A stretch of DNA of 64,000 bases from an uncultured Clostridium sp. (GCA_946495905.1 CAMMEP010000001.1:9089-73088), one strand, 5' to 3'. Counted from the first letter of the stretch, positions 3,022 through 64,000 are shown. Numbers and translations are program-made. Notes: generated by a model from the sequence alone, not told the origin.

Positions 3022-3624
3022 ATGAAAGTACTATTTGCAACAACAAATCCTGCGAAAGTAAAGAAGTATAAGGATTTATTAGCAGAAAAAGGCATTGAAT
3101 TAATTACAATAAAAGACTTAGACTTTAAATTACCTATTGACGAAAATGGTAAAGATGCTATTGAAAATGCATATATTAAAGCGAAAACTTACTATGATAG
3201 AACTAAAATTCCTACTATAGGAATGGATAATAATTTGTTTATAGAAGAATTGCCAGAAGAAAAACAACCTGGAACACATGTAAGAAGAATAAACGGAAAA
3301 GAACTAAATGACGAAGAAATGATAGAGTATTATACCAATTTAGTCAAGGAAAATGGTGGAAAATTAACAGCAAAATGGGTTTATGGAATGGTAATTTGCA
3401 GTAGAAAAAGTGTAAATAAGTTTACTTGGAGTAAAGATCATTTCTATTTTGTAGATAAACCATGTGAAAAGCGAAATCCAGGTTATCCATTAGATTCCAT
3501 TTCTGTAATGCCAGAAAGTAATAAATATTGGTTAGAATATCCAGAAGAATATAGGAAACAATATAACGAGAAGGACAATGTAGAAGAAGTAGTTCAGTTT
3601 ATTGTAAATAGTGTAAAGGAATAA
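3022..3624 (+). CDS. Ham1/RdgB-like non-canonical purine NTP pyrophosphatase family protein
   Basis: 200 aa. The N-terminus FATTNPAKVKKY resembles the Ham1 LATGNxGKxxE motif. ENAYIKAK and a PGxxxRR segment lie at family-typical positions. RBS AGGAGA. Confidence 0.5.
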   Translation: MKVLFATTNPAKVKKYKDLLAEKGIELITIKDLDFKLPIDENGKDAIENAYIKAKTYYDRTKIPTIGMDNNLFIEELPEEKQPGTHVRRINGKELNDEEMIEYYTNLVKENGGKLTAKWVYGMVICSRKSVNKFTWSKDHFYFVDKPCEKRNPGYPLDSISVMPESNKYWLEYPEEYRKQYNEKDNVEEVVQFIVNSVKE

Positions 3625-3742: not shown

Positions 3743-4531
3743 ATGAGAGAACTTGCTATGTGTGTTCAAAATAGTAATGAAAATGTGAGTATAGAAGATA
3801 CCATCTATGCCATAAAAAATGCAGGATTTAAAAATGTTTTTGTTCAATGGTATGATAAAGATTGGGAGTTTAGCCAGGAAGAGCAAGTAGCATTATGTAA
3901 AAAATTAGGACTTAATATTATATTTGCTCATTTAGGATACCAGAATATTAATTCTATTTGGGAAGAGGGAGAAGAAGGAGAAAGCCTAATAGAAAGATAT
4001 AAAACAGATATATGGAATTGCAAGCAAAATGGAATATCTTTGGTAATAATGCATTTAACATCAAAAAAAGTAGCACCAATGTATGGAGAAATTGGATTAA
4101 ATAGAATAAGAAAAATTACTGAGTATGCAAAAGAAATTGGAGTAAAAGTAGCGTTTGAGAATACAAGACTTAGAGGATATCTAGAATATGTATTGGGAAA
4201 TATTAAAGATGAGAACGTAGGACTTTGTTTTGATATAGGACATTATCACACACATTTCAATGATGAATTTGACTTTGAATTTTTTAAAGATAGAATATTT
4301 GCAGTACATTTACATGATAATGATAAAACAGGAGACTTACATCTGATGCCATTTGATGGAACAATAGATTGGAAAAATGGCATAAAAAAGTTAAAAGAAA
4401 GTAATTATGATGGGCCAATTACAATGGAGCTATGTTATAGATACGAGTATTTGAAAATGCCAATTGATGAATTTTATGAAAAAGGTTTTGAAGTAGGTAA
4501 AAAGTTACAAAAAATATTTGAAAAAGAATAA
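3743..4531 (+). CDS. sugar phosphate isomerase/epimerase (xylose isomerase-like TIM barrel) family protein
   Basis: 262 aa. The pattern of conserved E, H and D residues (FENT..., DIGHYH..., HLHDND) is typical of AP endonuclease 2 / TIM-barrel isomerases. Start could be 3743 or 3758. Confidence 0.5.
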   Translation: MRELAMCVQNSNENVSIEDTIYAIKNAGFKNVFVQWYDKDWEFSQEEQVALCKKLGLNIIFAHLGYQNINSIWEEGEEGESLIERYKTDIWNCKQNGISLVIMHLTSKKVAPMYGEIGLNRIRKITEYAKEIGVKVAFENTRLRGYLEYVLGNIKDENVGLCFDIGHYHTHFNDEFDFEFFKDRIFAVHLHDNDKTGDLHLMPFDGTIDWKNGIKKLKESNYDGPITMELCYRYEYLKMPIDEFYEKGFEVGKKLQKIFEKE

Positions 4532-7606: not shown

Positions 7607-8029
7607 ATGGATAGAGTAATAAAGATTGGTTTAGGTATTATGATTAAAGATGGAAATAAAGTTTTACTAGGGCATAGATGCGAAAATTATGGAGATACAG
7701 GAGGAATCTATGAACCAGGAAGTTGGACTTTTCCTGGTGGAAAACAAGAGTATGATGAAACTATGTTTGAAGGAGCAAAAAGAGAAGTAAAAGAAGAAAC
7801 AAATTTAGAAATATCAGAATTGTCAATTTTTGGAGCTACAGATGATATTCAACCAAATAAACATTATATTACGATTCAAATAATTGCTAATAAATTTAGT
7901 GGAGAATTAAAAAATATGGAACCAACAAAACACAGTGAATGGAAATGGTTTGATTTAAATAATTTACCACAAAATTTATATACTCCAACTAGGGAATTTT
8001 TAGAAGAATATATAAAGAATAATAAATAA
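7607..8029 (+). CDS. NUDIX hydrolase
   Basis: Nudix box GGKQEYDETMFEGAKREVKEETNLE. Confidence 0.8.
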   Translation: MDRVIKIGLGIMIKDGNKVLLGHRCENYGDTGGIYEPGSWTFPGGKQEYDETMFEGAKREVKEETNLEISELSIFGATDDIQPNKHYITIQIIANKFSGELKNMEPTKHSEWKWFDLNNLPQNLYTPTREFLEEYIKNNK

Positions 8030-9231: not shown

Positions 9232-9594
9232 ATGTCAAAAAATGAATTTATATGTGACTGCAATATAATCCATGAAGATGTAGTAAATAGAACACTAGCA
9301 AAAATGCCAGAGCAAGATGTATTTAATAAATTAGCAGAATTTTTTAAAATTATTGGTGATACTACAAGAACAAAAATTTTATTTGCATTAGATGAAAATG
9401 AAATGTGTGTATGCGATATAGCAAATGTATTAGGAATGAGTAAATCATCTATTTCACATCAATTAGGAACATTAAGAAGAATGGGTATTGTAAAATGTAG
9501 AAGAGATGGAAAAGAAGTGTATTATATGCTTGATGATGAACATGTAAAACAAGTATTTGAAGTGGGTATTGAGCATATTGAACATAGAAAATAA
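9232..9594 (+). CDS. cadC: ArsR/SmtB family metal-responsive transcriptional repressor (CadC-like)
   Basis: AGGAGG RBS. N-terminal CDC, the EMCVCDIANVLGMSKSSISHQL metal-site plus HTH, and a position directly upstream of a Cd/Zn P-type ATPase. The listed ORF's N-terminal extension (9013-9231) covers the promoter and is rejected. Confidence 0.8.
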   Translation: MSKNEFICDCNIIHEDVVNRTLAKMPEQDVFNKLAEFFKIIGDTTRTKILFALDENEMCVCDIANVLGMSKSSISHQLGTLRRMGIVKCRRDGKEVYYMLDDEHVKQVFEVGIEHIEHRK

Positions 9595-9619
9595 AGGATT
9601 AGAAAGGAATTCAAATTTT

Positions 9620-11461
9620 ATGAAAAAAGATGGAATTAAAATAATAATTGCTTTTGTACTATTCTTATTTGCAATGCTTGTAAAATTTCAAAATGTATGG
9701 ATAAATAATGGAATCTTTATTGTCAGTTATCTTATTGTAGGATTTGAAATTTTAAGAAAAGCGGTAAAGAATATTTTTAAAGGTAAAGTTTTTGATGAGA
9801 ACTTTTTAATGGCAATAGCAACTTTAGGAGCATTTGCAATTGGCGAATTTCCAGAGGCAGTAGCTGTAATGCTATTCTATCAAGTAGGAGAACTATTCCA
9901 AGACTATGCAGTAGATAAATCTAGAAAATCTATTGCTAGTTTAATGGATATTAGACCAGACTACGCTAATGTTGTTAGAGATGGAAAAGAAGAAAAAGTT
10001 AGTCCAGAAGAAGTAAAAATAGGCGAAACTATTCTTGTAAAGCCTGGCGAAAAGATACCATTAGATGGACTTGTGATAGAGGGAAAAACTACATTAGATA
10101 CAAAGGCCTTAACAGGAGAATCAGTACCAAGAGAAGTAGTAGAAGGAGAACAAATACTTAGTGGATGCATTAACTTAAATGGTGTTATTAAGGTAGAAGT
10201 GTCAAAAGAATTTGGAGAATCAACAGTAAGCAAAATATTAGATTTAGTTGAAAATGCAAGTAGTAAAAAAGCAAAATCAGAAAACTTTATTACGAAATTT
10301 GCTGCATACTATACACCAATTGTAGTGATTATTGCAATAATACTTGCCATTGTGCCACCACTAATCATGGAAGGAGCCAATTTCCAAGACTGGCTATATA
10401 GAGCATTATCATTCTTAGTGGTATCTTGTCCATGTGCATTAGTAATATCAATACCTTTAAGTTTCTTTGGAGGTATTGGTGGAGCTTCTAAAATGGGAGT
10501 ACTTGTAAAAGGTAGTAATTATTTAGAAGCACTATCAAATGCAGAAATAATGGTGTTTGATAAAACTGGTACTTTAACAGAAGGAGTGTTTGAAGTACAA
10601 AATGTTGAACCAATTGGAATTAGTAAAGAGGAGTTATTAAAAGTAGCAGCATATGCAGAATATTATTCTAATCATCCAATTTCAAAATCCATAAAAAAGG
10701 CATATAACAAAGAAATTGATGAAAAAGAAATTATAGATTCACAAGAAATTTCTGGAAAGGGAATTGAAGCAAAAATAGGCAATCAAGATGTACTTGCAGG
10801 AAATGAAAAATTGATGAATGAAAAAGGCATTGAATATGAAAAATGTACGCATATTGGAAGCGTTGTATATGTTGCAGTAGATGGAAAATATGTTGGGCAT
10901 ATTGTAATTTCAGATAAAATAAAAGAAGATGCAAAAAGAACAATAGATGAATTAAAGAAAAACAACATTAAGCAAACGGTAATGCTTACAGGAGATAGAA
11001 AAAATATAGGAGAAGCTGTTGCTAAAGAAATAGGAATAGATAAAGTATATACAGAATTGTTGCCAGACGGAAAGGTAGAAAAAGTAGAAGAATTACTAAA
11101 AACAAAATCACAAAAAGGAAAATTAGCATTTGTTGGAGATGGAATTAATGATGCACCAGTACTTGCTATGGCAGATATCGGAATTGCAATGGGAGGAATT
11201 GGAGCAGACAGCGCTATAGAAGCAGCTGATATAGTAATTATGACAGACCAACCTTCAAAAATAATAAGTGCAATGAAATTATCAAAAAAGACAATGCGAA
11301 TAGTAAAAGAGAACATTATATTTGCAATAGCAGTTAAAGTTTTAGTCTTGATATTAACTGCATTTGGCTTATCTAGCATGTGGCAAGCTGTATTTGCAGA
11401 TGTAGGAGTTTCTATTATTGCTATACTTAATGCACTAAGAGCCTTGAGAGTAAAGAATTGA
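9620..11461 (+). CDS. cadA: heavy-metal (Cd2+/Zn2+) translocating P-type ATPase
   Basis: CPC motif (SCPCALVIS), DKTGTLT phosphorylation site, GDGINDAP hinge and TGES actuator (TGESVP). The N-terminus is short, without an HMA domain. Confidence 0.9.
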   Translation: MKKDGIKIIIAFVLFLFAMLVKFQNVWINNGIFIVSYLIVGFEILRKAVKNIFKGKVFDENFLMAIATLGAFAIGEFPEAVAVMLFYQVGELFQDYAVDKSRKSIASLMDIRPDYANVVRDGKEEKVSPEEVKIGETILVKPGEKIPLDGLVIEGKTTLDTKALTGESVPREVVEGEQILSGCINLNGVIKVEVSKEFGESTVSKILDLVENASSKKAKSENFITKFAAYYTPIVVIIAIILAIVPPLIMEGANFQDWLYRALSFLVVSCPCALVISIPLSFFGGIGGASKMGVLVKGSNYLEALSNAEIMVFDKTGTLTEGVFEVQNVEPIGISKEELLKVAAYAEYYSNHPISKSIKKAYNKEIDEKEIIDSQEISGKGIEAKIGNQDVLAGNEKLMNEKGIEYEKCTHIGSVVYVAVDGKYVGHIVISDKIKEDAKRTIDELKKNNIKQTVMLTGDRKNIGEAVAKEIGIDKVYTELLPDGKVEKVEELLKTKSQKGKLAFVGDGINDAPVLAMADIGIAMGGIGADSAIEAADIVIMTDQPSKIISAMKLSKKTMRIVKENIIFAIAVKVLVLILTAFGLSSMWQAVFADVGVSIIAILNALRALRVKN

Positions 11462-14801: not shown

Positions 14802-15434
14802 ATGAGTAAAAAATTAAATAATGACTTAAAAGAATATATAGAAGCTGAGATATTTCCACAATATAATAAAAACGAAGCAGGACATGGAATAAATCACATA
14901 AAAACAGTAATAGATAGAAGTTTGAAATTCGCAAAAGATTATGATGTAGATATAAACATGGTTTATACGATAGCTGCATATCATGATATTGGTCATTATA
15001 TAGATAGGAAAAGACATGAAATTATATCAGCTGAAATTTTCATGAAAGATGAGAATATGATAAAATTTTTCAATGATGAAGAAATAAAAATAATAAAAGA
15101 AGCAATAGAAGACCACAGAGCATCAAGTGACCATGAACCAAGGACTATTTATGGAAGAATAGTAAGTACAGCAGATAGAACTATTATTGATATTGATACT
15201 ACGATAAGGAGATCATATTCTTATGGTAAAAGAAATTATGTAGGAATATCAGAAGAAGAACAAATTGACAGAGTTTATAGTCATTTAAAAGAAAAATATG
15301 GCGAAAATGGATATGCAAAAGTGTATTTAAAAGATAAAGAATTTGAAGAAGCATTACAAAAATTAAGAAAAACTTTATCTAATAAGCAAGACTTTATGAA
15401 TAGAGTGAAAAGAGTAGTAAGTAAGATGGAATAA
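14802..15434 (+). CDS. HD domain phosphohydrolase
   Basis: H...HD motif (AAYHDIGHYIDRKRHE) with conserved downstream His and Asp residues. Confidence 0.7.
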   Translation: MSKKLNNDLKEYIEAEIFPQYNKNEAGHGINHIKTVIDRSLKFAKDYDVDINMVYTIAAYHDIGHYIDRKRHEIISAEIFMKDENMIKFFNDEEIKIIKEAIEDHRASSDHEPRTIYGRIVSTADRTIIDIDTTIRRSYSYGKRNYVGISEEEQIDRVYSHLKEKYGENGYAKVYLKDKEFEEALQKLRKTLSNKQDFMNRVKRVVSKME

Positions 15435-16495: not shown

Positions 16496-17173
16496 ATGAG
16501 TAGTTTTTATGAGTTTGTAAAAAATGATAAAACTATAATAGAAATTTATAAGCAAATACATGAATACGAAGACGAAGAGAAAGAACGTGCATACCATGAT
16601 TTAAATCATGTAATAAATGTAGCTGAATTAGTAAAAAGGTTGCTTGAAGCTTTAAATTATGACAAAGAATTTATTGATGAGGCACAGGTAGCAGCAATTT
16701 TACATGATACTGGATGTATAAAAGGTAAAGAAGGTCATCCATTCAGAAGTTATGAATATGCAAAGGACTATTTAGAAAAAAATAATATTAAGTTAAAGAA
16801 TCAAGAAATGGTATTGGATGCTATAAAAAACCATAGTAATGGATTCGATACTGATAATATTATTACACTTACGCTGATATTGGCAGATAAACTTGATGTA
16901 AAGAAAACAAGGATTAGTACAGAAGGATGCAAATTTGTTGGAAATAGACAATTCCAATATGTAAGTGACATTAATTTAAAAATAGATAAACATAATCTAA
17001 AAATCTACTTTAAGTGTGATCAAAAGATCAATTTAAAAGAATTAGAAGAATATTATTTTACAACAAAGATTTTTAAGGCAGTAAAGACTTTTTCTAAAAA
17101 GATGAATTTACAGCCAGATGTATTTGTAAATAATGAATCTTGGAAAGCTTTTTATAATCCAGATAGAATTTAA
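16496..17173 (+). CDS. HD domain phosphohydrolase
   Basis: LNHV...ILHDTGCIKGKEGH forms the HD metal-binding motif. GGAGG RBS. Confidence 0.6.
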   Translation: MSSFYEFVKNDKTIIEIYKQIHEYEDEEKERAYHDLNHVINVAELVKRLLEALNYDKEFIDEAQVAAILHDTGCIKGKEGHPFRSYEYAKDYLEKNNIKLKNQEMVLDAIKNHSNGFDTDNIITLTLILADKLDVKKTRISTEGCKFVGNRQFQYVSDINLKIDKHNLKIYFKCDQKINLKELEEYYFTTKIFKAVKTFSKKMNLQPDVFVNNESWKAFYNPDRI

Positions 17174-17240
17174 AGTAGCGAAATATAATACAGAATATCT
17201 AAAGATAAAGTTAACTTTAGTAAGGAGATGTTACTTAGGT

Positions 17241-17786
17241 ATGAATATAGAAAATGAATTAAAAGAAATTCTAATAGATAAATATAATGTTGAAGTTAAT
17301 GGAATTCAAAAAAATCTTCAATCAACTATTGGCAATGTATATATTAGTAATGATAATAAATATGTAATAAAAATATATAATGATATAGAACATACTATAA
17401 CAATGACAAATTTACATAATGATATGGAACGTAAATCTGTGTTACATTTTGACCTAACAAGAAATAACATATTTATTGATAACGAGCAAGAAAAAATTGG
17501 TTTCATTGATTTTGATGATGCAAAATTTGGTGCGTCCGTGTGTGATGTGGCTATATTAGTTGCAAACTTATTTTTTTCAAAATCTAAAGGTGCTAATTTA
17601 GAAGATATGCATAAATTTATAGATGCATATTACGAAGAAGATTTGAAAATAAAAGAAGTAGAAGTACCTAGAATAAAAGAATTTGCCTTAATGTGGATAG
17701 ATTATGTTTTAGACGGAAATGAGTTTGATGCAAGTACGACGGAAAGTTTTGAAGTAAGGAAGAAGCTAATAAATAGGCATTTATAA
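17241..17786 (+). CDS. phosphotransferase (APH/choline-kinase-like) family protein, unusually short
   Basis: Catalytic-loop and DFG-like motifs HFDLTRNNIFID ... IGFIDFDDAKFG. AGGAGA RBS before ATG at 17241. The region between the N-lobe and the catalytic loop is much shorter than in typical APH enzymes. Confidence 0.4.
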   Translation: MNIENELKEILIDKYNVEVNGIQKNLQSTIGNVYISNDNKYVIKIYNDIEHTITMTNLHNDMERKSVLHFDLTRNNIFIDNEQEKIGFIDFDDAKFGASVCDVAILVANLFFSKSKGANLEDMHKFIDAYYEEDLKIKEVEVPRIKEFALMWIDYVLDGNEFDASTTESFEVRKKLINRHL

Positions 17787-18023: not shown

Positions 18024-19157
18024 ATGAGTAAACATTATTTTACATCAGAAAGTGTAACAGAAGGACATCCAGATAAATTATGTGATTTAATATCAGATAG
18101 TATTTTAGATGAATGTTTAAAACAAGATAAAGATTCAAGAGTAGCAGTAGAGACTTTTGCAGCTGGAAATACAATAACGATTGCAGGCCAAATAACATCT
18201 AAGGCAGAGTTTGATGTAGAGGAGATAGTAAGAAAAACAATACAAGAAATTGGTTATGATAATGCAGAAACTGATATGGATTATAAGACATGCAAGATAG
18301 ATATTAATATTACAAAGCAAAGTCCAGATATTGCTATGGGAGTAGATATTGGCGGTGCAGGTGACCAAGGAATTATGTTTGGCTATGCATCTGATGAAAC
18401 AGAAAATTACATGCCTTATGCAATTAACATGGCACATAAATTATCTAAAAGATTAACAGAAGTTAGAAAAAAAGGAATTATACCATATTTAAGACCAGAT
18501 GGAAAGGTGCAAGTGACAGTAGAGTATGAAGATGACAAACCAAAAAGAATAGAAACTATTCTTATTTCTACACAGCACAATGCAGAGATAAGCCAAAAAA
18601 CTTTAAAAGAAGATGTGATAGAATACATAATTAATGCTATTGTTCCAACAGATATGATGGACGAAAACATCAAAATATATGTAAACCCAACAGGAAGATT
18701 TGTAATAGGGGGACCATTAGGAGATACTGGACTTACTGGAAGGAAAATAATCGTAGATACTTATGGTGGATATGCAAGACATGGAGGAGGAGCTTTTTCT
18801 GGAAAAGATGCTAGCAAAGTTGACCGTAGTGCAGCATATATGCTTCGTCATATTGCAAAAAATATAGTAGCAAATGGGTATGCAAAAAAATGTGAAATAC
18901 AAGTTTCGTATGCGATTGGCATGAAAGAACCTTTATCAATCTATATTAATACCTTTGGAACAGGCAAAAAATCAGAGGAAGAATTAGTAGAAATGATAAA
19001 AAATAACTTTGATTTAACACCAAAAGGAATGATAGACTATTTAGGCTTACAAGAACCAATCTTTACCAAAACAACAAATTATGGACATTTTGGAAAAGAC
19101 AATTTGCCATGGGAGAAAATAATAGATTTGAGCTACGCAGAAAGGACACAGAAATGA
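18024..19157 (+). CDS. metK: S-adenosylmethionine synthetase
   Basis: [33 protein letters not shown] and [18 protein letters not shown] are canonical MetK motifs. AGGAGG RBS. The listed ORF's N-terminal extension is rejected. Confidence 0.95.
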
Positions 19158-21115
19158 ACTACAAAATAGTAAATGGCTCTATTTCGTTTGGGGCTGAAAC
19201 AATATTAGAAGAAATAAATTTTGAAATAAAAGAAAAAGATAAAATTGCTATTGTAGGTAGAAATGGAAGTGGAAAAACCACATTTTTAAAAGCGATAGTA
19301 GATAATTCTATGCTAGAAGAAGGAATTGGAGAGGAAAAATTTGGAGTATATAAGCAAGGTTCTCCTAGCATAGGTTATTTAAAACAAATGGAGTTTGAAG
19401 ATTCTAATGATACTATGCTAGATGAAATTTTAAAAGTATATGAACCAATTCTTAACTTAGAGAAGAAAATTGAAAAGCTAGCAAAGGAGCTACAAAACTC
19501 GCAAGATGAAAATTTGATTAAAGATTATACCAATTCTTTAGATAGATTTGAGCAAATAGGTGGTTATACTTACAAAAAAGAATATGAAATAGCGATTAAG
19601 AAATTTGGTTTTACAGAAGAAGATAAAGTTAAAAAGATGAATCAGTTTTCTGGAGGACAAAGAACTAAAATCGCTTTTTTGAAGCTACTACTTAGTAAGC
19701 CAGATATTTTGTTATTAGATGAACCAACTAACCATTTAGATATTACAGCAATAGAATGGTTAGAAGGGTATCTCAAAGATTATCCTAATGCGGTTGTAAT
19801 TGTATCCCATGATAGAATGTTTTTAGACCAGATTGTAAACAAAGTGTATGAAATAGAATATGCAACCATGACAGAATACGTGGGAAACTATACAAAATTT
19901 GAAGAGCAAAAAAGAGCGAATTATGAAAAACAGCGAAAAGACTATGAATATCAACAGGCAGAAATTAAAAGACTAAAAGCCATAGCAGATAGATTTAGGT
20001 ACAAGCCTACGAAAGCAAAAATGGCATTATCAAAATTAAAGCAAATAGAAAGAATGACAATAATTGAAGAACCAAGCAAATATGATTTGAAAACATTTCA
20101 TACGAATTTTGAGCTAAAGACAGAAAGTGGAAAGATGGTACTTACTGTAAAGAATCTACAAATAGGATATGATAACCCAATTTCCGAAGTATCATTTGAA
20201 CTTTTTAGAGGGCAAAAATTGGCTATTATTGGAGAAAACGGAATTGGAAAATCTACCTTGCTGAAAACTTTAAATGGAGATATACCAAAACTTGGTGGAG
20301 AATTCGAATTTGGATATCATGTAGAAAAAGGGTATTTTGACCAGCAAATGGAATTCTCTAATCCAGAAAATACTGTATTTGATGAGTTTTATGAAAGTTT
20401 TCCTAACCTTACAACAACGCAAATACGAACTATTTTAGGCACCTTTTTGTTCTCAGGAGAAGATGTATTTAAGAAAATAAAAGTATTATCAGGAGGAGAG
20501 AGAGGACGCTTACAATTATGTAAAATTTTCAAAAAAGGTCCTAATTTATTATTACTAGATGAACCAACCAACCATATGGATATTGTAGGTAAAGAAAGTT
20601 TAGAAAATATCTTAAAAGAATACAAAGGTACATTAATATTTGTTTCTCATGATCGATATTTTGTAAATAAAATAGCAGATTCTTTATTAATATTCGAGAA
20701 GGATAAAGTTACATATTTTAGTGGAACTTATGAAGAATATAGAAGGAAAAGTAAGGAACAAGAAGAAATAGCAGAGAATGCTGTTATACTTGAAAAGACA
20801 AGAAACACTAATATAAAATATGCAGTGCAGGAAAACGACATATCCGCTTCTAGTTCTAATAAGAAAGAAAATTCCTATTTTATAAATAAAGAGAAAAACA
20901 AAATGAAAAATAAGATTAGCAAATTAGAAAGTGAAATTGAAGAAAAAGAGAAACAGATTGAGACATTACAAAAAGAGATGCTACAAGAAGAAATAAGTAC
21001 AGACTATGTAAAATTAAAGGAATTGCAAGATAAAATTCAAGAGTTGAATAATGAAATAGAAAGCAAAATGTTAGAATGGGAAGAAATAAATACCCAATTA
21101 GAAAACTTTTCTTAA
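19154..21115 (+). CDS. ABC-F family ATPase (two ABC domains, no TMD; C-terminal coiled-coil tail)
   Basis: Two Walker A ([18 protein letters not shown]), two ABC signatures ([16 protein letters not shown]) and an inter-domain linker. The start overlaps the metK stop (ATGA). Confidence 0.85.
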
Positions 21116-21181
21116 TTGTCAAAATTTTATTCTTATGCTAGAATAAAAATGCAATAAACAGAAAAGAATGGAGAAAAATAA

Positions 21182-22618
21182 ATGAGAATAGGAATCGATA
21201 TTGATAATGTAATTTCAAACTTTAATGATGTCCTTTTGAAAGAATATTTAAAACATGATAAAGAGTTAAGAAATACGGGGATAATTGATAATTCTCCCTA
21301 CTATATAACAAAAGGAATGTTTGACTGGTCACAAGAAGAAAATGATGACTTTTACTATGCTAATATTCAAAGAATAGCAAAAAGTTTAAAACCCTTAAGA
21401 AATGCAAAACAAACAATTGATAAATTGAAGCAAGATGGGAATGAAATTTATATTATATCCTCACGTGATAATGGTGAATATATCAACCCATATGAAATGA
21501 CAGTCGAATGGCTTGAAAAATATGATATAAAATATGATAAGCTTATTCTTACAGATAAGTACCAAAAATGGCCAGTATGTAAAGAATATAAAATAGATAT
21601 TATGATAGAAGATAGTATAAGAAATTGTGAAGATATAGAAAATAACGGTGTTAAATGTTTCATTATGGACACAAGATATAATAAAGATGAAACAAGGTTT
21701 GAAAGGGTAAAAAATTGGAGAGAAATTTATTCGAAAATTTCTGAAAGGTATCCTAAGAAAGAAATCAATAAGATAAATGTAATCTTAGATACGGATACCT
21801 ATAATGAGTGTGATGACCAATTTGCAATTAGTTACCTCATAAAATCACAGGACCGCTTCAACATAGAAGCAATTACGATAGCTCCTTATCATCATGATAA
21901 TGATATAAACATAGAAGAAGGACAAGAAAAAAGCTATCAAGAAGCATTGAAGATTTGCAAATGGCTAAATTTTGATGGAGAGAATAAGATTTATAAAGGT
22001 TCAACGGACTATATCGAAGAAGGATATAATGAAGCTAATGATGCAGTAGAAAAAATAATAGAAATAGCAAGGAAAAAAGAGAAAACATATATTATAGCAA
22101 TTGGTGCAATAACAAATATAGCACTAGCAATAAAAAAGGCACCGGACATCATAAGCAAGATTGAAATAGTATGGCTTGGCGGTCATAGTCCACTTTATAT
22201 GAATAATGACGAATTCAATTTTAGACAAGATGTACAAGCTATAAAGGAGATCTTTGAATCAAAAGTTAATTTAACAATTATTCCTTGCAAAGGTGTTGCA
22301 TCTAACTTAAAAATATCAATATTTGAATTAGGACATTATTTAAAAGGAAAAAGTGAGTTATGTGACTATTTATGTGGCAGATTTTATAATGACGGAATAC
22401 ATGGAATTCAAATTAGAAGACCAATCTGGGATATTAGTGCAGTAGCATATTTAATTAATAAAAATTGGTTTGAGGAGCGAGTAATAGATTGCCCAGAAAT
22501 AAATAAAGATTTAAGTTATACTTTTAACAAAAATGGTAGAAAAATAACTATGGTAACTTATTTGAATTCGGATAAGATATACGAAGATTTATTTAGTAAA
22601 TTAGTAGAAAAAGGATAG
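21182..22618 (+). CDS. fusion protein: N-terminal 5'(3')-deoxyribonucleotidase-like HAD domain (NT5C family) plus C-terminal inosine-uridine-preferring nucleoside hydrolase (IUNH) domain
   Basis: N-terminus IGIDIDNV (DxDxV HAD motif). C-terminal domain starts VILDTDTYNECDD, the IUNH DxDxxxDD aspartate cluster. Confidence 0.6.
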   Translation: MRIGIDIDNVISNFNDVLLKEYLKHDKELRNTGIIDNSPYYITKGMFDWSQEENDDFYYANIQRIAKSLKPLRNAKQTIDKLKQDGNEIYIISSRDNGEYINPYEMTVEWLEKYDIKYDKLILTDKYQKWPVCKEYKIDIMIEDSIRNCEDIENNGVKCFIMDTRYNKDETRFERVKNWREIYSKISERYPKKEINKINVILDTDTYNECDDQFAISYLIKSQDRFNIEAITIAPYHHDNDINIEEGQEKSYQEALKICKWLNFDGENKIYKGSTDYIEEGYNEANDAVEKIIEIARKKEKTYIIAIGAITNIALAIKKAPDIISKIEIVWLGGHSPLYMNNDEFNFRQDVQAIKEIFESKVNLTIIPCKGVASNLKISIFELGHYLKGKSELCDYLCGRFYNDGIHGIQIRRPIWDISAVAYLINKNWFEERVIDCPEINKDLSYTFNKNGRKITMVTYLNSDKIYEDLFSKLVEKG

Positions 22619-22620
22619 AA

Positions 22621-23508
22621 ATGGAAGATTTATTAATAGAAAAAGATAATATAGAAAAAGCATTAGCATTTTACAATATAGATATAGAAGATTATAAAAA
22701 TAGGTGCTATAAATGTTTTGATGACATTCATAAGAATAATGAATTGAAAACCAGAATAAATAATGTACTGAAATTATTATATAGTCATGAAAGTGAACAA
22801 CTGAAATTATTATGGAACGAAAATGATTTGTGTAAATTTTTAGGAGAATCCTATAATAAATTTATTCATACCATTATACTCTTATCAGGTTATGAAATAC
22901 ATCAAGAAAACATGAATAAATATAAATTTGATACATATCAAGTTTTAGTACATAAAAACAGAGTGAAAGAATGTTTAATGAATGACATATATAATAGAAA
23001 ATTAGAAGGAATTAGGTTGTCTCAGGTTTTATGGGGAATATATTTCATAACTATTAGATTAATAGAAGTTGGAAGATTGCAGTATGAATATTGTAATAAT
23101 AAAAAAGGAGAATATATTAAAATACATATACCAAAAGGAGATAAACTACTTTATAATGAAGTATTGAATTCCATAAAAAATTCTAAAAAAGAAATAAATA
23201 AATACTTTAAAATACAAAATTACGAATATTATTGTGAATCATGGCTATTGAGTAAAGAAATAGCGAAACTATTAGATAGCAATTCAAATATTGCTAAATT
23301 TCAACAATTATTTGATATAACTGAAGGAAAAAATGCAATTAAGGATATTTTAAATTTCGTTTATGATTTGCAACATATAAATAGTTATTATGACTTACCA
23401 GAAAGAACAAGTCTACAATCAAAAATAAAAGACTTATTACTTGACGGGAAAGTAATTCACATTGGAATAGGAAAATTAAAAAATGATAAATTAATAATGA
23501 ATGATTAA
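22621..23508 (+). CDS. hypothetical protein (translationally coupled to upstream fusion gene)
   Basis: Start 3 nt after the upstream stop. I recognise no confident family. Confidence 0.45.
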   Translation: MEDLLIEKDNIEKALAFYNIDIEDYKNRCYKCFDDIHKNNELKTRINNVLKLLYSHESEQLKLLWNENDLCKFLGESYNKFIHTIILLSGYEIHQENMNKYKFDTYQVLVHKNRVKECLMNDIYNRKLEGIRLSQVLWGIYFITIRLIEVGRLQYEYCNNKKGEYIKIHIPKGDKLLYNEVLNSIKNSKKEINKYFKIQNYEYYCESWLLSKEIAKLLDSNSNIAKFQQLFDITEGKNAIKDILNFVYDLQHINSYYDLPERTSLQSKIKDLLLDGKVIHIGIGKLKNDKLIMND

Positions 23509-23520
23509 AAGGGGTAAAAA

Positions 23521-24129
23521 ATGAAATTAACAAGCAAAGAAGCAAAAGAAATACTAGAAAGTTACAGAGGGAAAACAATAAATGATAAATGGATAGACCA
23601 TTGTATTTATGTAGGAGATACAGCAGGAAAAATCGCTGAAGCTATAAAAGAAAAAGGATATATTATAGATGTTGATAAAACAATAACTCTTGGATATGTT
23701 CATGATATTGGAAAATATAGTGGTGAATCTCATGGACATGTTATGAGAGGATATAATTATCTAAAGGAAAGAGGATATGATGCAGAATATTGTAATATTT
23801 GCTTAACACATTCCTATTTGAATAATGATATTATTTGTACAGCTGGTGGTGTTCCGAATCAAAATGAGAATCCATTTCTAACAGAGTTTATAAAAAAACA
23901 TGAATACACAATGGAAGAAAAAATAATTAATTTGTGTGATTTGATGTGTCCACCAGGAGGAAGAGTATATACAATAGACAAGAGATTAATAGACATTATA
24001 ATTAGAAGAGGAGCTTATACAAATACGCAATACCATGTTAAAGAAACATATAAATTAAAAGAGTATTTTGATAATTTATTAGGTTATAATTTATATGATT
24101 TATTTCCAGAAATAAAAGATAACTTATAA
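23521..24129 (+). CDS. HDIG domain phosphohydrolase
   Basis: HCIYVGDTAG...VHDIGK...HGHVMRGY matches the HD/HDIG metal-binding motifs. Confidence 0.65.
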   Translation: MKLTSKEAKEILESYRGKTINDKWIDHCIYVGDTAGKIAEAIKEKGYIIDVDKTITLGYVHDIGKYSGESHGHVMRGYNYLKERGYDAEYCNICLTHSYLNNDIICTAGGVPNQNENPFLTEFIKKHEYTMEEKIINLCDLMCPPGGRVYTIDKRLIDIIIRRGAYTNTQYHVKETYKLKEYFDNLLGYNLYDLFPEIKDNL

Positions 24130-24166: not shown

Positions 24167-24943
24167 TTGAATACTGCAATTGGACTTTTAATTCCATTTT
24201 TAGGAACAATGCTTGGCTCTGCTATGGTATTTTTCATGCGAAAAGAAATTAATAAAAAATTAGAAAGGTTATTATTAGGGTTTGCAGCTGGAGTAATGAT
24301 TGCAGCTTCTATTTGGTCTCTTCTTATTCCAGCAATGGATATGGCAGAAGAACAAGGAGAAATAACTTGGCTTCCGGCAGCAATTGGTTTTAGTTTAGGA
24401 ATTCTTTTTTTACTTGCTTTGGACCATATCATACCACATTTGCATTTAAAGAAAAGTAAACCAGAAGGAATTAAATCAAAATTAAAAAATTCTACAATGA
24501 TGGTTTTAGCAGTAACTCTTCATAATATTCCAGAAGGAATGGCTACTGGAGTTGTATTTGCTGGATTAATGACACAAAATTCAGGGATTACTTTTGCGGG
24601 AGCGCTTGCATTAGCAATTGGTATAGCTATACAAAACTTTCCAGAAGGAGCTATTATTTCAATGCCATTAAGAGCAGAAGGAGTATCTAAACCAAAAGCG
24701 TTTCTATATGGAATGTTATCTGGAATAGTAGAGCCTATTGCTGCCGCTGTAACTATTTTAATTACAAGCACAGTGTTACCAATACTTCCCTATATATTAT
24801 CCTTTGCAGCAGGTGCAATGATTTACGTTGTAGTAGAAGAATTAATTCCAGAAGCACAAGAAGGCGAGCATTCCGACATTGGTACCATAGGAGTAGCAAT
24901 AGGTTTTGTGCTAATGATGGTATTAGATATAGCATTGGGATAG
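24167..24943 (+). CDS. ZIP family metal (zinc) transporter
   Basis: HNIPEG and FPEGAI motifs in TM helices, as in ZupT. Apparent TTG start with a GGAGATG RBS. Confidence 0.7.
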   Translation: MNTAIGLLIPFLGTMLGSAMVFFMRKEINKKLERLLLGFAAGVMIAASIWSLLIPAMDMAEEQGEITWLPAAIGFSLGILFLLALDHIIPHLHLKKSKPEGIKSKLKNSTMMVLAVTLHNIPEGMATGVVFAGLMTQNSGITFAGALALAIGIAIQNFPEGAIISMPLRAEGVSKPKAFLYGMLSGIVEPIAAAVTILITSTVLPILPYILSFAAGAMIYVVVEELIPEAQEGEHSDIGTIGVAIGFVLMMVLDIALG

Positions 24944-36053: not shown

Positions 36054-36965
36054 ATGCAAAAAATAGATTTACATATACATACAACAATGTCAGATGGAAG
36101 TTTAGCACCGAAAGAGATAGTAGATGAAGCTTATAAAAATGGTGTATCCGTTATTGCAATTGCAGATCATGATACAATAGATGCCTATACGGATGATTTA
36201 TTTTCTTATGCAAATAGTAAAAATATAAGGATTATTCCAGCAGTAGAAATATCTACAAAAACTGAAAAAGCAGGTATTCATGTATTAGGATATAATTTTA
36301 ATTTAAAAAATCAGCCTTTTAGAGAAAAATTGAGCAAAATAAGAAATGCTAGACATGACTATCTACACAATGTTTCTAAAAAAATAAACCAATTAGGTTA
36401 CTTTATAAATGTAGAACAATTGGATAGGATAGATGCTGTTACTAAAGCTCATATTGCTTTAGATGTTGTGAATAATGAAAAAAATAAAGAAATTCTCCTA
36501 CAAAATTTTGGCCACATTCCAAGCAAGGGAGAATTTATAGAAACAATAATGAATGAAAATTGTCCTGCGTATGTAAAAAAAGAAACAGTAACTCCGAAAG
36601 AAGCAGCAGAAATGATAAGAAAAGCAAATGGAAAAGTGGTTTTAGCACATCCTGTTGCATATGTTCATGAAGATAATTTTACAGATGAAGATATTTTAAA
36701 TATAATTAATGAAATGAAACCAGATGGACTAGAGGCAAATTATTTATATATAGATAGAAATAACAATATCTTTGATGAAACAGAAAAATGGAATAAATTT
36801 GCTAAAGAAAACAATTTATTTGTAACAGTTGGTTCAGATTTCCATAATAAAGATGGTATTAGACCAGAAATTGGTTTTGCAAATACAAATTTCGTTTTAG
36901 AAGATAATGTTGTAGATGAAATTATTAAAAATTTAAAATTCAGAGGAGATTTTGCAAATGTTTAA
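36054..36965 (+). CDS. PHP domain phosphoesterase
   Basis: [13 protein letters not shown]...IADHDT is the PHP domain metal-binding signature. Confidence 0.75.
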
Positions 36966-60503: not shown

Positions 60504-60732
60504 TATCAATAGTCGTAGCGATTTCTAATAAAGAAAAAAGTTTGAAAAATATATGAATTGTTGCCATTTTGTTGCCAAACTAAAATAAAATTGCTAGAAC
60601 CATTGAAAATACTGCATTTTATCTTGGCAACAAAAATGGCGACAAATTGAAACAATTATAATAACCAAAAAAGCTAACATATAGAAAGTGTTAGCTCATT
60701 TTTTATTTACTAAAAATTTGGAGGTAAAAAAT

Positions 60733-62000
60733 ATGGTTAGTGTAAGAAAAAGAGGAAATGTTTATCAATATCAATTTGATATTGCACCAGTTGATGGTAA
60801 AAGAAAGCGAATTACAAAATCTGGTTTTAAAACGAAAGGAGAAGCAGAAAAAGCAGGTATAATTGCTTATAATGAATATACACAGACAGGACATAATTTT
60901 ACACCAAGCACAATTTCCTACTCTGATTATTTAGATTATTGGTTGAAAGAACATTGTGAAATTAATCTAAGATACCATACAATACGAGCATATAGTAACA
61001 TAATAAAAAATCATATAAAACCCAATATTGGTTTCTATAGATTATCACAAATTACTACTTCAACATTACAAGAATTCATAAATAAAATATATGTAGAAAA
61101 AAGTTTTTCAAAAAATTTTTTAAAAAACATTTTAAAGGTATTAAAAACATCTTTTGCCTATGCAACAGATGTAGTAGGATTTGTAAAAGAAAATCCAGCA
61201 TTAAAAGTTAAATTACCAAAATATGATGTACCAGATCCTGATCCTGCACATATTTTTACAAAAGAGGAAATTGATATGATTTTGAATAGATTTAAAAAAA
61301 ATCATGCTTTCTATTACGCAGCTTTAACAGCATATTATACGGGATTAAGAGTTTCAGAAGTTTTTGCTTTAACATGGGATGACATAGATTTAGAGAATAA
61401 GACTTTAACTGTAAATAAAAATGTAATAGAAAAAATCATATTGGTAGCACACATGGCAGACACTTGAGCGGTAAAGCAAAAACTGTTTGGTATTTTGGTA
61501 ACTGTAAGACACCTTCTAGTTATAGAACTATAGATATAGGTAATACATTAGTAAATGCTTTAAAGGAATTCAAAGAAGAACAAGCAAGGCATAAAGAAGA
61601 ATATGGAGATTCGTATATGAAACATTATGCCAAAGAAGTTTTAAATCCATATACCAATAAACCAGAAACAAAAATTATTAATGCACTTGCTGAAATAGAT
61701 GTAGCACTTCCAGAGGTTAATTTAGTATTTGTAAAGAACAATGGAGTGTTTGAAGGTACTGCAACAGTCAAATATCCATTTAAAGTTATTCACTATGAAT
61801 TAGGAATTTTATGTAGATTTCATGACTTTAGAGATACACATGCAACAAAGCTAATTGAAAATGGAGCAGATGTTAAAGCAGTTGCTAAAAGATTAGGACA
61901 CAGTACAATTAGAACAACTTATGAAATTTATGTTAAAGTTACTAGCAAAATGGAATCGGATGTTGTTAATAAATTTGAAGAATATGCTATGTCAAAATAA
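60733..62000 (+). pseudogene. int: tyrosine-type site-specific integrase split by a frameshift in an A-run (~61430-61436)
   Basis: N-terminal arm-binding/SAM-like domain in 60733-61467. Catalytic domain (RFHDFRDTHAT...LGHSTIRTTYEIYVKV with the R, H-x-x-R and Y residues) in 61464-62000 in another frame. The frame switch coincides with GAAAAAATC. Confidence 0.7.
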
Positions 62001-62083
62001 AAAATTAAATTAATAGTAAACTACAGATTTGTAACATTATTACAAACTGTGGTTTATTTTTTTTGCTTTAAAAGGAGGTAAAA

Positions 62084-62545
62084 ATGGAAAGGTTAAAATT
62101 AGTAAAATCTTTAGAAAATAAAAAATTATATACAAGAGAAACGGCAAAAATGACTCTTGAAAATGTAATAAAACGAATTAAAGAAGCAAATAGGAATGAT
62201 GAATTTATTTATAAAATTACTAAAGCAGTCTTATTTGGTTCATATATAAATTCAAACAAAGAAAAAGTTGGAGATTTAGATATTGCAATATATATCGAAC
62301 TAAAAGATAAGTCTAAACCAGAGCTAGAACAAAATATGGAAAGAGCTAGTACATCTAATAGTTATGTACCATTCATATTAAAATTTATATATGGAAAAGA
62401 AGAAGTGTTTAAGTATATTAAAGACAAAAAACATATATTGCAATTACACGATGGAAATAAAGTTGATAAGGATTCAAAGGAACACAAAGAACCACTTAGT
62501 TATATATATTTTGATAAATACAAAATAATATATGAGGAGGTGTAA
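62084..62545 (+). CDS. nucleotidyltransferase (minimal Pol-beta-fold NTase) domain protein
   Basis: VLFGSYINSNKEKVGDLDIAIY matches the GS...D.D NTase signature. Confidence 0.55.
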   Translation: MERLKLVKSLENKKLYTRETAKMTLENVIKRIKEANRNDEFIYKITKAVLFGSYINSNKEKVGDLDIAIYIELKDKSKPELEQNMERASTSNSYVPFILKFIYGKEEVFKYIKDKKHILQLHDGNKVDKDSKEHKEPLSYIYFDKYKIIYEEV

Positions 62546-62549
62546 TAAA

Positions 62550-62651
62550 ATGTGGCAATTTCTTTTAGGATTATTTATAGGAGCAAATGTTTCACTTTTT
62601 CTATATGCAATTATATTAGCAGGAAAGAGAAGTGAAAATAGAGATGAATGA
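62550..62651 (+). CDS. small hydrophobic peptide ORF (33 aa, MWQFLLGLFIGANVSLFLYAIILAGKRSENRDE)
   Basis: RBS GAGGAGGTG 7 nt upstream. One predicted TM helix. Not in the supplied track. Confidence 0.25.
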   Translation: MWQFLLGLFIGANVSLFLYAIILAGKRSENRDE

Positions 62652-63454
62652 AGAAAATAAAATTGGTTATTATGCAATAATACCTTCTACAGTATTATTT
62701 AATGAAAGAATAAAGGCAAATGAAAAATTATTATATGCAGTTATTACAGTTCTATCTAACAAAGAGGGATATTGTTATGCTTCAAATACTTATCTAGGTA
62801 AACTATTAAAAGCCCAACCTCATACAATTTCTAAATGGGTATCACATTTAAAAAGTTTAGGTTTTTTATGTTTAGATATTATTAAAAATGATAAAGGCGA
62901 AATAATACAAAGGAGAATTTATCCAAATGATACCCCCCTATACGATAAATAGGACATACCCCTATTCGACAGATGGGACAGAGGGTATGTCCCCAAAAGG
63001 ACAATATAATAATATAATAGATAATAATATAAATAAAGAAAAGATAGATAGATTATTTAATTATATAATAGATAAAGAAAAAGAAATTCCAAAAGAATTT
63101 GTTAATGTTGATTTAAATGAAATAAATGTTGCATTAAAAAGATTTGATATGTTATATCCAAAACCAATTCTAGATATAATGTCTGAAGAAAATTTAGAAT
63201 CTGTAAAAAATATAACTTATATTATTGCTTTAATAGTTAAAAATAAATTATTTCATTTATCAAATAAAATAACGAGAGATAAACTCATACAGATATGTAA
63301 TGACTGTAAAGATAGAGAAAAACAAAATGAGGGAACAGAAAAAAGAATAGAGAATTTTATTAATTATTTTTATAAAAGCATAGAAAATGAATTAACGAAG
63401 GAAAGTAAAGGACCTTCTTTTTTTATGCCTAATAATGATGAAATTGAAATTTAA
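62632..63454 (+). CDS. phage/plasmid replication-initiator-like protein (winged-helix N-terminal domain), read as two ORFs (62632-62952 and 62927-63454) that a 1-nt change in a C6 run (62933-62938) would fuse
   Basis: N-terminus YYAIIPSTVLFNERIKANEKLLYAVITVLSNKEGYCYASNTYLGKLL...TISKWVSHLKSLGFL resembles RepA-N/replisome-organiser wHTH domains. The overlap region carries iteron-like repeats. Confidence 0.4.
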
Positions 63455-63516
63455 AGGAGGTGGTTTTATGCTCTAACTAATAAAAAAAATAAAATTAAAA
63501 AGAAAGGAGTTCGCCT

Positions 63517-63837
63517 ATGAAAATTTACAGAGTTATCTTCAAAAGTATTGATATAGATGAAGCTGACAACACACTAATAATTACAACTTTTCAAAATAGA
63601 GAGCTTGCTGAACAATACCTTAAAGAAAGAATTGAAGAACTAAAAGAACAAGAAGAAATTTTAAAACAAGATGATTATGTAACAGAAGAAAGAAAGAATT
63701 ATTACGAAAGATATTTAAATGGTAGAGGAATAGAAGATTCAGTATCAATATATCTTGAAGAAGATGAAACTTATGATGAAATAATGCTAAAAGAAAAAGC
63801 AGAAAGATTAGAAAAGGAAAATAATTATGAAATGTAA
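63517..63837 (+). CDS. hypothetical acidic coiled-coil protein
   Basis: RBS AAAGGAG. Glu/Lys-rich. No recognised family. Confidence 0.45.
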   Translation: MKIYRVIFKSIDIDEADNTLIITTFQNRELAEQYLKERIEELKEQEEILKQDDYVTEERKNYYERYLNGRGIEDSVSIYLEEDETYDEIMLKEKAERLEKENNYEM

Positions 63838-64000
63838 AGTTTTAATTGTTTTACTGATTTTAATTTGTATTATTGCTTTTTGCTTTTATATTTTTATTAT
63901 ATTTAATGACTTTCAAGAAAAAGAAGAAAGCAACAAAGATACTGAAAACCTTATAAAAGAAACAATAATAGTAAATGAAGAAACAGAAGAAAAAAACATT
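63827..64000 (+). CDS. hypothetical small membrane protein (3' end beyond window)
   Basis: ATG overlaps the end of the previous gene. MKCKVLIVLLILICIIAFCFYIFIIF is a TM helix. Confidence 0.35.
   Translation, partial: MKCKVLIVLLILICIIAFCFYIFIIFNDFQEKEESNKDTENLIKETIIVNEETEEKNI

Follow-up and report, generated by a model that had tools for sequence, protein, structure and literature searches.

We propose that the fused hydrolase and the HDIG phosphohydrolase encoded by a three-gene cluster of an uncultured Clostridium sp. form the core of a cytoplasmic module that would dismantle nucleotides for the salvage of base and ribose in low-GC uncultured gut Firmicutes, a reading to which we give a probability of about 0.55 and in which activities and substrates are predicted. 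The genes lie on the plus strand of a stretch of 64,000 nucleotides (GCA_946495905.1 CAMMEP010000001.1:9089-73088), the whole of which was analyzed and is called the window here. They encode a 478-aa fusion of an NT5C-type phosphatase and an IU-NH-type (IUNH) nucleoside hydrolase (gene 1, 21182-22618), a 295-aa protein with a GNAT_C domain (gene 2, 22621-23508), and a 202-aa HDIG phosphohydrolase (gene 3, 23521-24129). Open reading frame (ORF) calls placed all three on the plus strand and confirmed the span given for them in an earlier note on this DNA, and since each is matched at full length by more than 100 database clusters at 68-100% identity, they are real genes and not chance ORFs.

In the proposed route, gene 3 would trim a phosphorylated nucleotide to the nucleoside monophosphate (NMP), the candidate substrates being a nucleoside triphosphate (NTP), a nucleoside diphosphate, a dinucleoside polyphosphate, or a cyclic or 3'-phosphorylated nucleotide. 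The NT5C domain of gene 1 would then take the last phosphate and leave the nucleoside, as its family membership and intact motifs suggest, and the IU-NH domain, with bound Ca2+ on the ribose 2',3'-diol, would hydrolyze the N-glycosidic bond to give base and ribose, as its family and ligands suggest. The products could feed phosphoribosyltransferase salvage and ribose fermentation, and fusion of the last two steps would prevent both escape and re-phosphorylation of the nucleoside intermediate. Since enzymes of the IU-NH family hold the ribose 2',3'-diol via Ca2+ and need the 2'-OH, the flux is more likely to consist of ribonucleotides than of deoxyribonucleotides, despite the name of the NT5C family. 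Gene 2, which in some lineages goes with the IUNH gene, would be an optional extra that the core function does not require. A stepwise route from nucleotide to base had already been suggested for this locus, and it remains the most economical reading of the predicted activities.

The N-terminal domain of gene 1 (residues 1 to ~190; 21182..21751, plus strand) is a predicted 5'(3')-nucleotidase of the NT5C-type HAD phosphatases, with a Pfam match to NT5C (PF06941) over residues 3-186 (45.2 bits against a cut-off of 24.8, E = 1.3e-11) and the nucleophile motif D6-I-D8-N-V, which has the DxDxV form. Residue conservation in gene 1 was read from an alignment of 16 full-length fusions at 30-83% identity. 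In this half, D6, D8, S/T93, R95, K129, D139, and D144 were invariant or conservatively replaced down to 30% identity, and HAD motifs I (DxDx[V/T]), II (S/T), III (K), and IV (acidic pair) were all retained in 16/16 fusions. Because the catalytic DxD begins at residue 6, gene 1 is predicted to lack a signal peptide and its product to be cytoplasmic.

The C-terminal domain (residues ~197-478 plus the stop codon; 21770..22618, plus strand) is predicted to be a divergent IU-NH-family nucleoside N-ribohydrolase. IU_nuc_hydro (PF01156) matched residues 200-434 in Pfam with 87.9 bits against a cut-off of 34.2 (E = 1.2e-24), and a profile of the fusions matched 23 solved nucleoside hydrolases (NHs) at E <= 1e-5, the best at E = 5e-16. 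The Asp cluster DTDTYNECDD occupies residues 203-212, and the DTDxxNExDD pattern aligns to the canonical DxDxxxDD with a 2-residue insertion, all four Asp being kept and the Asn invariant. Across the 16 fusions D203, D205, N208, D211, D212, N312, E344, N346, and D417 were invariant. The ITN and EFN of the fusions align with the Thr126 and Glu166/Asn168 regions of solved IU-NHs, the residues N312, E344, N346, and D417 align to the GxxTN, EFN, and HD of 8qnd, 8ctm, and 5tsq, and (W/F/Y)-D417 aligns with His241-Asp242, so that D417 is the equivalent of the Ca2+-binding Asp242. By this alignment, the Ca2+ and ribose ligands of the IU-NH half are intact. The earlier note had described a fusion with DxDxV and DTDTYNECDD motifs. 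This description holds, as the two Pfam domains are above their cut-offs and both motifs are present. Both halves also keep their catalytic residues, and the metal-binding and catalytic Asp residues are invariant to 30% identity, with W, F, or Y at the position of the catalytic-acid His. The domain scored far below the cut-offs of the NCBIfam equivalogs RihA, RihB, and RihC, the best being RihC with 54.6 bits against 382. Its own subfamily comprises 256 clusters (50% identity) at E <= 1e-30, mostly standalone proteins of ~300 aa, and the standalone relatives match at E = 1e-40 to 1e-85. In other phyla the standalone genes of this subfamily adjoin ribokinase, sugar ABC transporters, and LacI regulators, a neighborhood that is a signature of ribonucleoside utilization and therefore supports a true ribonucleoside-hydrolase role.

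Gene 3, previously described as an HDIG hydrolase, passed both the HD model of Pfam (40.2 bits against a cut-off of 22) and the HDIG domain model of NCBIfam (34.1 bits against 27.6). In 17 sequences at 39-79% identity, H27, H61, D62, H73, H97, D140, K65, R155, and R162 were invariant, and the additional invariant residues H73 and H97 could, with the HDIGK motif, point to a second metal site. The family is strongly conserved, its top 120 clusters being 78-98% identical and nearly all 202 aa long, and the HDIG subfamily to which gene 3 belongs holds more than 2,400 database clusters (90% identity). Scores stayed below the equivalog cut-offs for YqeK (TIGR00488, 17.6 against 70.15) and TIGR00295 (48.5 against 172.35), and a profile search of the PDB gave weak matches, with 1xx7 at E = 2e-4 and YqeK at E = 0.017. 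The AlphaFold2 (AF2) model of gene 3 has a mean predicted local distance difference test score (pLDDT) of 69.1, and its C-terminal third is poor. NCBIfam, PADLOC, PDB sequence, and Foldseek searches found no dGTPase/SAMHD1-type homology, and gene 3 has 202 aa versus ~450-600 aa for dGTPase-type HD enzymes. We regard gene 3 as a probable small standalone HD phosphohydrolase of the nucleotide type, in an uncharacterized subfamily on which our literature search returned no paper.

One argument that these proteins work together comes from the genes that travel with the fusion. Among the 41 species-level fusion loci for which 1.5 kb or more of downstream sequence was available, an HD gene lay within 3 kb downstream on the same strand in 28, and in 15 of the 41 the distance was 60 bp or less; GNAT_C was found anywhere in the locus in 6/41 and abutting in 2/41. 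A search of all ORFs of 53 loci with hidden Markov models (HMMs) gave HD in 38/53 and GNAT_C in 9/53, and the low frequency of GNAT_C is real, since the HMM, tblastn, and blastp searches found the identical 9 loci. Synteny of the trio across genomes thus held for the HD partner and failed for GNAT_C. No other neighbor family recurred in more than 15/53 loci, and as the flanks are otherwise unconserved, the link between fusion and HD is not simple inherited synteny. The association was also seen in the opposite direction, when metagenome contigs were scanned with the HD alignment. An intact IUNH gene lay upstream of HD in 46 of the 66 contigs with enough upstream sequence (44 by automatic count plus L166 and L171, where the IUNH gene overlaps the HD start), and in 45 of the 46 it was fused to NT5C. 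In about 13 further HD contigs an intact NT5C ORF preceded HD, with remnants of an eroded IUNH gene between the two, and ~4 of the 66 showed no IUNH trace. The recurrent unit is therefore the fusion plus HD, and GNAT_C is an accessory.

The eroded copies belong to a lineage (L158, L160-L163, L167-L170, and L174; e.g., L161:3974-5609) that has lost the IUNH domain from the fusion: what is left of it are frameshifted pieces (81 and 52 aa), next to an intact NT5C ORF, 194 aa long if read from the first ATG or 210 aa if read from a TTG further upstream, and an intact, abutting HD gene. That NT5C and HD persist despite the decay of IUNH suggests a tighter functional pairing between these two phosphohydrolases. 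The same three functions also occur unfused, in L065:9983-12031, as separate abutting or overlapping ORFs for IUNH (288 aa), NT5C (195 aa), and HD (197 aa); IUNH comes first there, the reverse of the fused domain order, and HD overlaps NT5C by 4 nt. An HD-IUNH fusion of 520 aa (P0257) carries another HD subtype, and we rejected it as a Rosetta-stone link between orthologues because its HD domain has no detectable similarity to gene 3, so it supports the concept only. Fusion and HD do not follow the same phylogeny: the fusions nearest to the window (L011, L012, and L018; 76-83% identity) carry HD proteins only 57-61% identical to gene 3, whereas more distant fusions (L020, L027, L029, and L052; 44-67% by domain) carry HD proteins 72-79% identical, and there are at least three HD length and insertion subtypes. 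This incongruence suggests that alleles may have been replaced or recombined within the module.

Gene 2, which had been listed as an unrecognized protein, could be assigned to a family. Pfam GNAT_C (PF18164) matched residues 147-285 with 117 bits against 22.8 (E = 8e-34), covering model positions 1-141 of 142, and the sequence matches in the PDB were Tcp24 (Orf11*) and Dbv8 at E ~3e-6 to 5e-5. The AF2 model, of moderate confidence (pLDDT 69.7), is helical from residue 8 to residue 143, with an alpha/beta domain after that, and Foldseek aligned it to 4mfz, 6iix, 4mfk, 4q36, and 4mfj over ~295 columns with probability 1.00 and a template modeling (TM) score of ~0.5, nothing else falling below E = 0.1. 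Gene 2 is therefore a member of the Orf11*/Dbv8 acyltransferase fold family, with a helical N-terminal domain plus GNAT_C. No NRPS, glycosyltransferase, or P450 gene of a glycopeptide or other biosynthetic cluster was present in the window or in related loci, and a literature search returned no paper on GNAT_C proteins outside glycopeptide clusters. Side observations on this family are that L008:9446-10900 encodes a GNAT_C protein with an extra C-terminal domain of ~190 aa that has no Pfam match, and that the same domain is a separate ORF abutting the HD gene in L011:7606-8184.

In most loci that have it, GNAT_C lies directly next to the IUNH gene, the stop and start codons being 2 nt apart here, in L001-L011, in L039, and in L096-L099. 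In L096-L099 the IUNH protein, 80% identical to the domain in the window, abuts GNAT_C with no NT5C domain and no HD within 5 kb, an arrangement suggestive of a link between the acyltransferase and either the hydrolase step or its products. These loci come from a close relative, in which a gene of the class-A beta-lactamase family (Beta-lactamase2, E = 6e-51) lies two genes downstream of the pair (L096-L099:6430-7245), with His_Phos and PHP genes as its neighbors. A 352-aa NT5C-GNAT fusion (Acetyltransf_1/7/10) lies immediately 3' of HD in a lineage of very high abundance (L092-L095:5618-6676), and in L091:5618-6665 it is split into two ORFs; this is a second, independent pairing of a phosphatase with an acyltransferase. 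A 483-aa NT5C-GNAT_C protein (P0191) comes from a single contig and possibly reflects deletion of the IUNH domain.

The earlier note had called the fusion architecture uncommon, which our searches did not support. A word-indexed search of 90%-identity clusters gave more than 120 full-length matches, 68-100% identical, an exhaustive search of 50%-identity representatives returned ~10 full-length clusters at 31-62% identity, and a scan of one genome per species, from which 80 loci were kept, found the intact fusion in 50/80. All 50 carriers were metagenome-assembled genomes (MAGs) of uncultured gut or animal Firmicutes, labeled Clostridia, Bacilli, 'Tenericutes', Clostridium sp. CAG:575, Firmicutes CAG:582, and Ca. 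Onthousia, and the fusion is thus common within low-GC gut Firmicutes MAGs. Public records name its relatives by one domain, either as '5' nucleotidase, NT5C type' or as 'nucleoside hydrolase'.

The arrangement of the three genes is compact. The stop codon of gene 1 and the start codon of gene 2 are separated by 2 bases (TAG-aa-ATG), and the TAA of gene 2 is followed by 12 nt with AAGGGG and then the ATG of gene 3. A GGAG ribosome-binding site was read from the sequence ahead of gene 1, at ~21170. A candidate sigma-70-like promoter, TTGTCA-17 nt-TG-n-TAGAAT (21116..21144, plus strand; 10/12 consensus matches, TG present), sits by consensus match alone inside the 66-nt gap between the upstream ABC-F gene and gene 1. 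We rejected a riboswitch ahead of gene 1, as there was no Rfam match there and the 66-nt gap is too short; at gathering thresholds the only Rfam match in the window was a skipping-rope RNA ~12 kb upstream of the trio. No terminator-like site was found within the trio or between gene 3 and the ZIP transporter gene at 24167.

The window has ~28% G+C and almost all of its genes on one strand, and since it carries UvrA, UvrB, SecA, a MurD-like ligase, Cmk, and MetK, it represents core chromosome. The trio is placed between metK/ABC-F and the ZIP transporter gene, with ABC transporters also nearby. Across the related loci the recurrent neighbors were His_Phos/CobC-like, HisJ-like PHP, Cof-type HAD, C26 glutamine amidotransferase-like, and NUDIX genes, along with single-domain NT5C, P-loop kinase-like, and MFS-like membrane proteins. 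The Ham1, NUDIX, and other HD house-cleaning genes in this core-chromosome context support a salvage module, and housekeeping salvage, which had been put forward as the conservative option, was the best fit to our results.

Several findings weigh against such a module. The NT5C domain is divergent, with best PDB sequence matches (a PNKP-type HAD phosphatase and the deoxyribonucleotidase 3bwv) at E ~0.2-0.3, and given this divergence it might possibly act on a non-nucleotide phosphoester. In the IU-NH half, the position of the catalytic-acid His (His241) is occupied by W416 here and by W, F, or Y in relatives, and because of this replacement the specificity of the domain cannot be read from its sequence and the domain is predicted not to be a group-I IU-NH; Trp at the catalytic-His position is a hallmark of the purine-specific IAG-NHs. 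For gene 3, Foldseek of the model against the PDB was generic, with a best E of 0.08 (1xx7, PgpH, YpgQ, YfbR, and OxsA). About one-third of the fusion loci have no HD nearby, and the decay of the IUNH domain described above, in an abundant human-gut lineage, means that the three steps are not obligatorily linked. Moreover, the loci are arrays of many unrelated small hydrolases, which weakens guilt-by-association, and a literature search returned no paper on the NT5C-IUNH architecture and no biochemical data for any member.

The array-like setting leads to an alternative in which there is no pathway at all, the fusion being bifunctional, the HD and GNAT_C proteins acting on unrelated substrates, and the whole being a set of independent small enzymes in co-directional hydrolase arrays. 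The region is indeed co-directional, densely packed, and without terminators, Cof-type HAD, Peptidase_C15-like, PHP, and His_Phos genes often lie between fusion and HD, the HD subtype and the fusion phylogeny are incongruent, with HD proteins only 57-61% identical beside the nearest fusions and 75-80% identical beside more distant ones, and the rate of evolution is lower for HD than for the fusion, which is what a housekeeping role of its own would lead one to expect. Nevertheless, we consider this unlikely, as the association holds at ~2/3 in both directions despite unrelated flanks, the genes directly abut or overlap in many species, the NT5C-HD pair is kept where IUNH decays, and an independent HD-IUNH fusion exists. 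The earlier note also raised an anti-phage system, in which the trio would drain the (deoxy)nucleoside triphosphate pool to bases upon infection. Gene content alone could in principle destroy nucleotides, and a phage-like Gp3 gene lies ~6 kb away in the relative L008, but a PADLOC-DB v2 scan of the three proteins and two neighbors gave no match for the trio and nothing relevant, and no sensor, toxin-antitoxin, nuclease, integrase, or other defense gene flanks the trio, the only integrase of the window being ~36 kb away. In addition, the fusion is vertically widespread in one lineage at a core-chromosome site and absent from 50,697 phage and 72,556 plasmid records (tblastn; single-domain matches only), the 202-aa HDIG protein lacks dGTPase/SAMHD1-type similarity, and a nucleotide-destroying defense without regulation would be toxic, with no regulator present. 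An anti-phage role is therefore very improbable.

The module could also serve to dispose of one non-canonical, modified, or toxic nucleotide and not for bulk salvage, the target being an antibiotic of the nucleoside-analogue type, phosphorylated or not, a modified nucleotide released by RNA turnover, or nicotinamide mononucleotide (NMN)/nicotinamide riboside. HD and NT5C would then dephosphorylate the compound, IUNH would destroy it irreversibly, and the acyltransferase, where present, would act by N-acylation of an amino group of the substrate or product. Such a role would fit the divergence of the IUNH subfamily, whose Asp motif is longer by a 2-residue insertion and whose catalytic His is replaced by an aromatic residue, and also the repeated pairing of phosphatase and acyltransferase (L092-L095 and P0191) and the abutment of GNAT_C and IUNH even without NT5C. 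The neighbors include resistance-type genes (ABC-F, APH-like, GNATs, MFS and MacB-type exporters, and a class-A beta-lactamase-like gene), and Ham1 and NUDIX house-cleaning genes share the window. However, no result points to a specific substrate, GNAT_C is missing from 35/41 species-level loci, P0191 could be a deletion artifact, no modified-base-specific transporter, regulator, or riboswitch is conserved nearby, and the resistance-type genes are not conserved as module neighbors in other genomes, which makes disposal distinctly unlikely in our view. Salvage of queuosine or of the riboside of NAD was rejected as a separate explanation, since no tgt, queuosine-related, radical-SAM, PnuC, or NadR-type gene recurs nearby, and it is kept only among the disposal targets. 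A pathway dedicated to the destruction of one harmful or modified nucleotide, such as a phosphorylated nucleoside-analogue antibiotic from gut competitors, seems a long shot. We thus favor the dismantling of nucleotides for salvage of base and ribose.

Other features of the window and of the related loci are described here as observations in their own right. The ABC-F gene directly upstream of the trio (19109-21115, plus strand) passed the NCBIfam cut-off for ribosomal-protection ABC-F proteins (458 bits against 380) and is OptrA-like but below the OptrA cut-off (704 against 1450); gene calls on identical contigs show a 4-nt overlap between the metK stop and the ABC-F start, and coupling of these two genes is unusual. 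Ham1/ITPase (3022-3624), NUDIX (7607-8029), two further HD (14802-15434 and 16496-17173), PHP (36054-36965), and xylose-isomerase-like TIM-barrel (3743-4531) genes are spread over the window. The HD gene at 16496-17173 was rejected as a paralogue of gene 3, since the similarity is local, over 60 residues at the HD motif, and the family HMM misses it. The TIM-barrel family of the xylose-isomerase-like protein is fused to IUNH elsewhere (P0325, IUNH-AP_endonuc_2, 575 aa), and further architectures were NT5C-MFS transporter (P0275, 591 aa) and IUNH-DUF4298 (P0348, 413 aa). An APH-like phosphotransferase ORF (17133-17786, plus strand) appears N-terminally truncated and may be decaying, as the gene has 181 aa in L001 and L002, the strain type of the window, versus 263 aa in L003 (L003:3814-4605), a difference of 246 nt. 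The skipping-rope RNA (RF02924; 9003-9084, plus strand) scored 69.9 bits against a gathering score of 36.7 and lies just upstream of a P-type ATPase ORF (9557-11461). Toward the end of the window, a phage-type integrase is perhaps split into overlapping ORFs on the plus strand, 60688-61467 (259 aa; arm-binding domain, SAM-like domain, and start of the catalytic domain) and 61464-62000 (178 aa), and with G+C falling to 23.8% at 62001-64000, this region may mark the border of an integrated element or represent a pseudogene.

Each domain of the trio comes from a known superfamily and the predicted chemistry is textbook, so no new biological principle is involved. As far as our literature searches and the database names go, what had not been described is the NT5C-IUNH fusion, its conserved HDIG partner, the His-less DTDxxNExDD subfamily of IUNH proteins, and a role for GNAT_C outside glycopeptides. 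If the activities hold, gene 1 would carry out two consecutive steps of nucleotide breakdown in one bifunctional protein, served by its own HD phosphohydrolase, and the module, which is confined to abundant uncultured low-GC gut Firmicutes, would help explain how these bacteria are supplied with nucleobases and ribose, giving a first functional entry point to three families so far without annotation, the His-less IU-NH subfamily, the HDIG subfamily, and the Firmicute GNAT_C proteins. If instead the genes formed a dedicated destruction pathway, they would represent a new system of nucleoside-antibiotic resistance or house-cleaning and the first function of GNAT_C outside glycopeptide biosynthesis. 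Our analysis also corrects the automatic annotation that names only one of the two domains of the fusion, and it makes these genes a good target for function assignment in uncultured gut bacteria.

Compared with known systems, the N-terminal domain of gene 1 resembles the NT5C 5'(3')-deoxyribonucleotidases (PF06941; human cdN/mdN, 3bwv, and phage genes) in its DxDxV motif and HAD motifs II-IV, but it has diverged strongly and bears a faint resemblance to PNKP-type 3'-phosphatases, and a preference for 5' versus 3' or ribo versus deoxyribo substrates cannot be assigned to it; the phage NT5C-domain homologues are annotated '5' nucleotidase' and adjoin a deoxynucleoside monophosphate (dNMP) kinase. 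The C-terminal domain shares its fold family with the IU-NH N-ribohydrolases of Crithidia fasciculata (1mas/2mas) and Leishmania major (1ezr) and with RihA, RihB, and RihC of E. coli. Like the solved enzymes, it keeps the N-terminal Asp cluster, the TN and EFN motifs, and the C-terminal Ca2+-binding Asp, and unlike them, it belongs to a distinct subfamily at ~20-25% identity, with an insertion in the Asp motif, without the His, and fused to a HAD phosphatase. Gene 3 is similar to YfbR, YpgQ, OxsA, and YqeK in its length of ~200 aa, all-helical HD fold, and invariant H...HD...D ligands, but is a member of none of these groups; YfbR is a 5'-deoxynucleotidase, YpgQ is an NTP pyrophosphohydrolase, OxsA hydrolyzes tri-, di-, and monophosphates stepwise, and YqeK is a diadenosine tetraphosphate (Ap4A) hydrolase. 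The relatives of gene 2, Orf11* (Tcp24) and Dbv8 (4mfj, 4q36, 4mfz, and 6iix), are acyl-CoA-dependent N-acyltransferases of teicoplanin and A40926, with structures solved with decanoyl- or octanoyl-CoA and teicoplanin, and gene 2 differs from them in its 16-17% identity and in its host, a gut Firmicute and not an actinomycete. As to net purpose, the release of a base from NMP would be shared with the AMP nucleosidase Amn and with nucleosidases of the PpnN/LOG type, which have no homology to the module and cleave the glycosidic bond of the nucleotide directly to give ribose 5-phosphate, whereas the module would use two unrelated domains in sequence and give phosphate and ribose.

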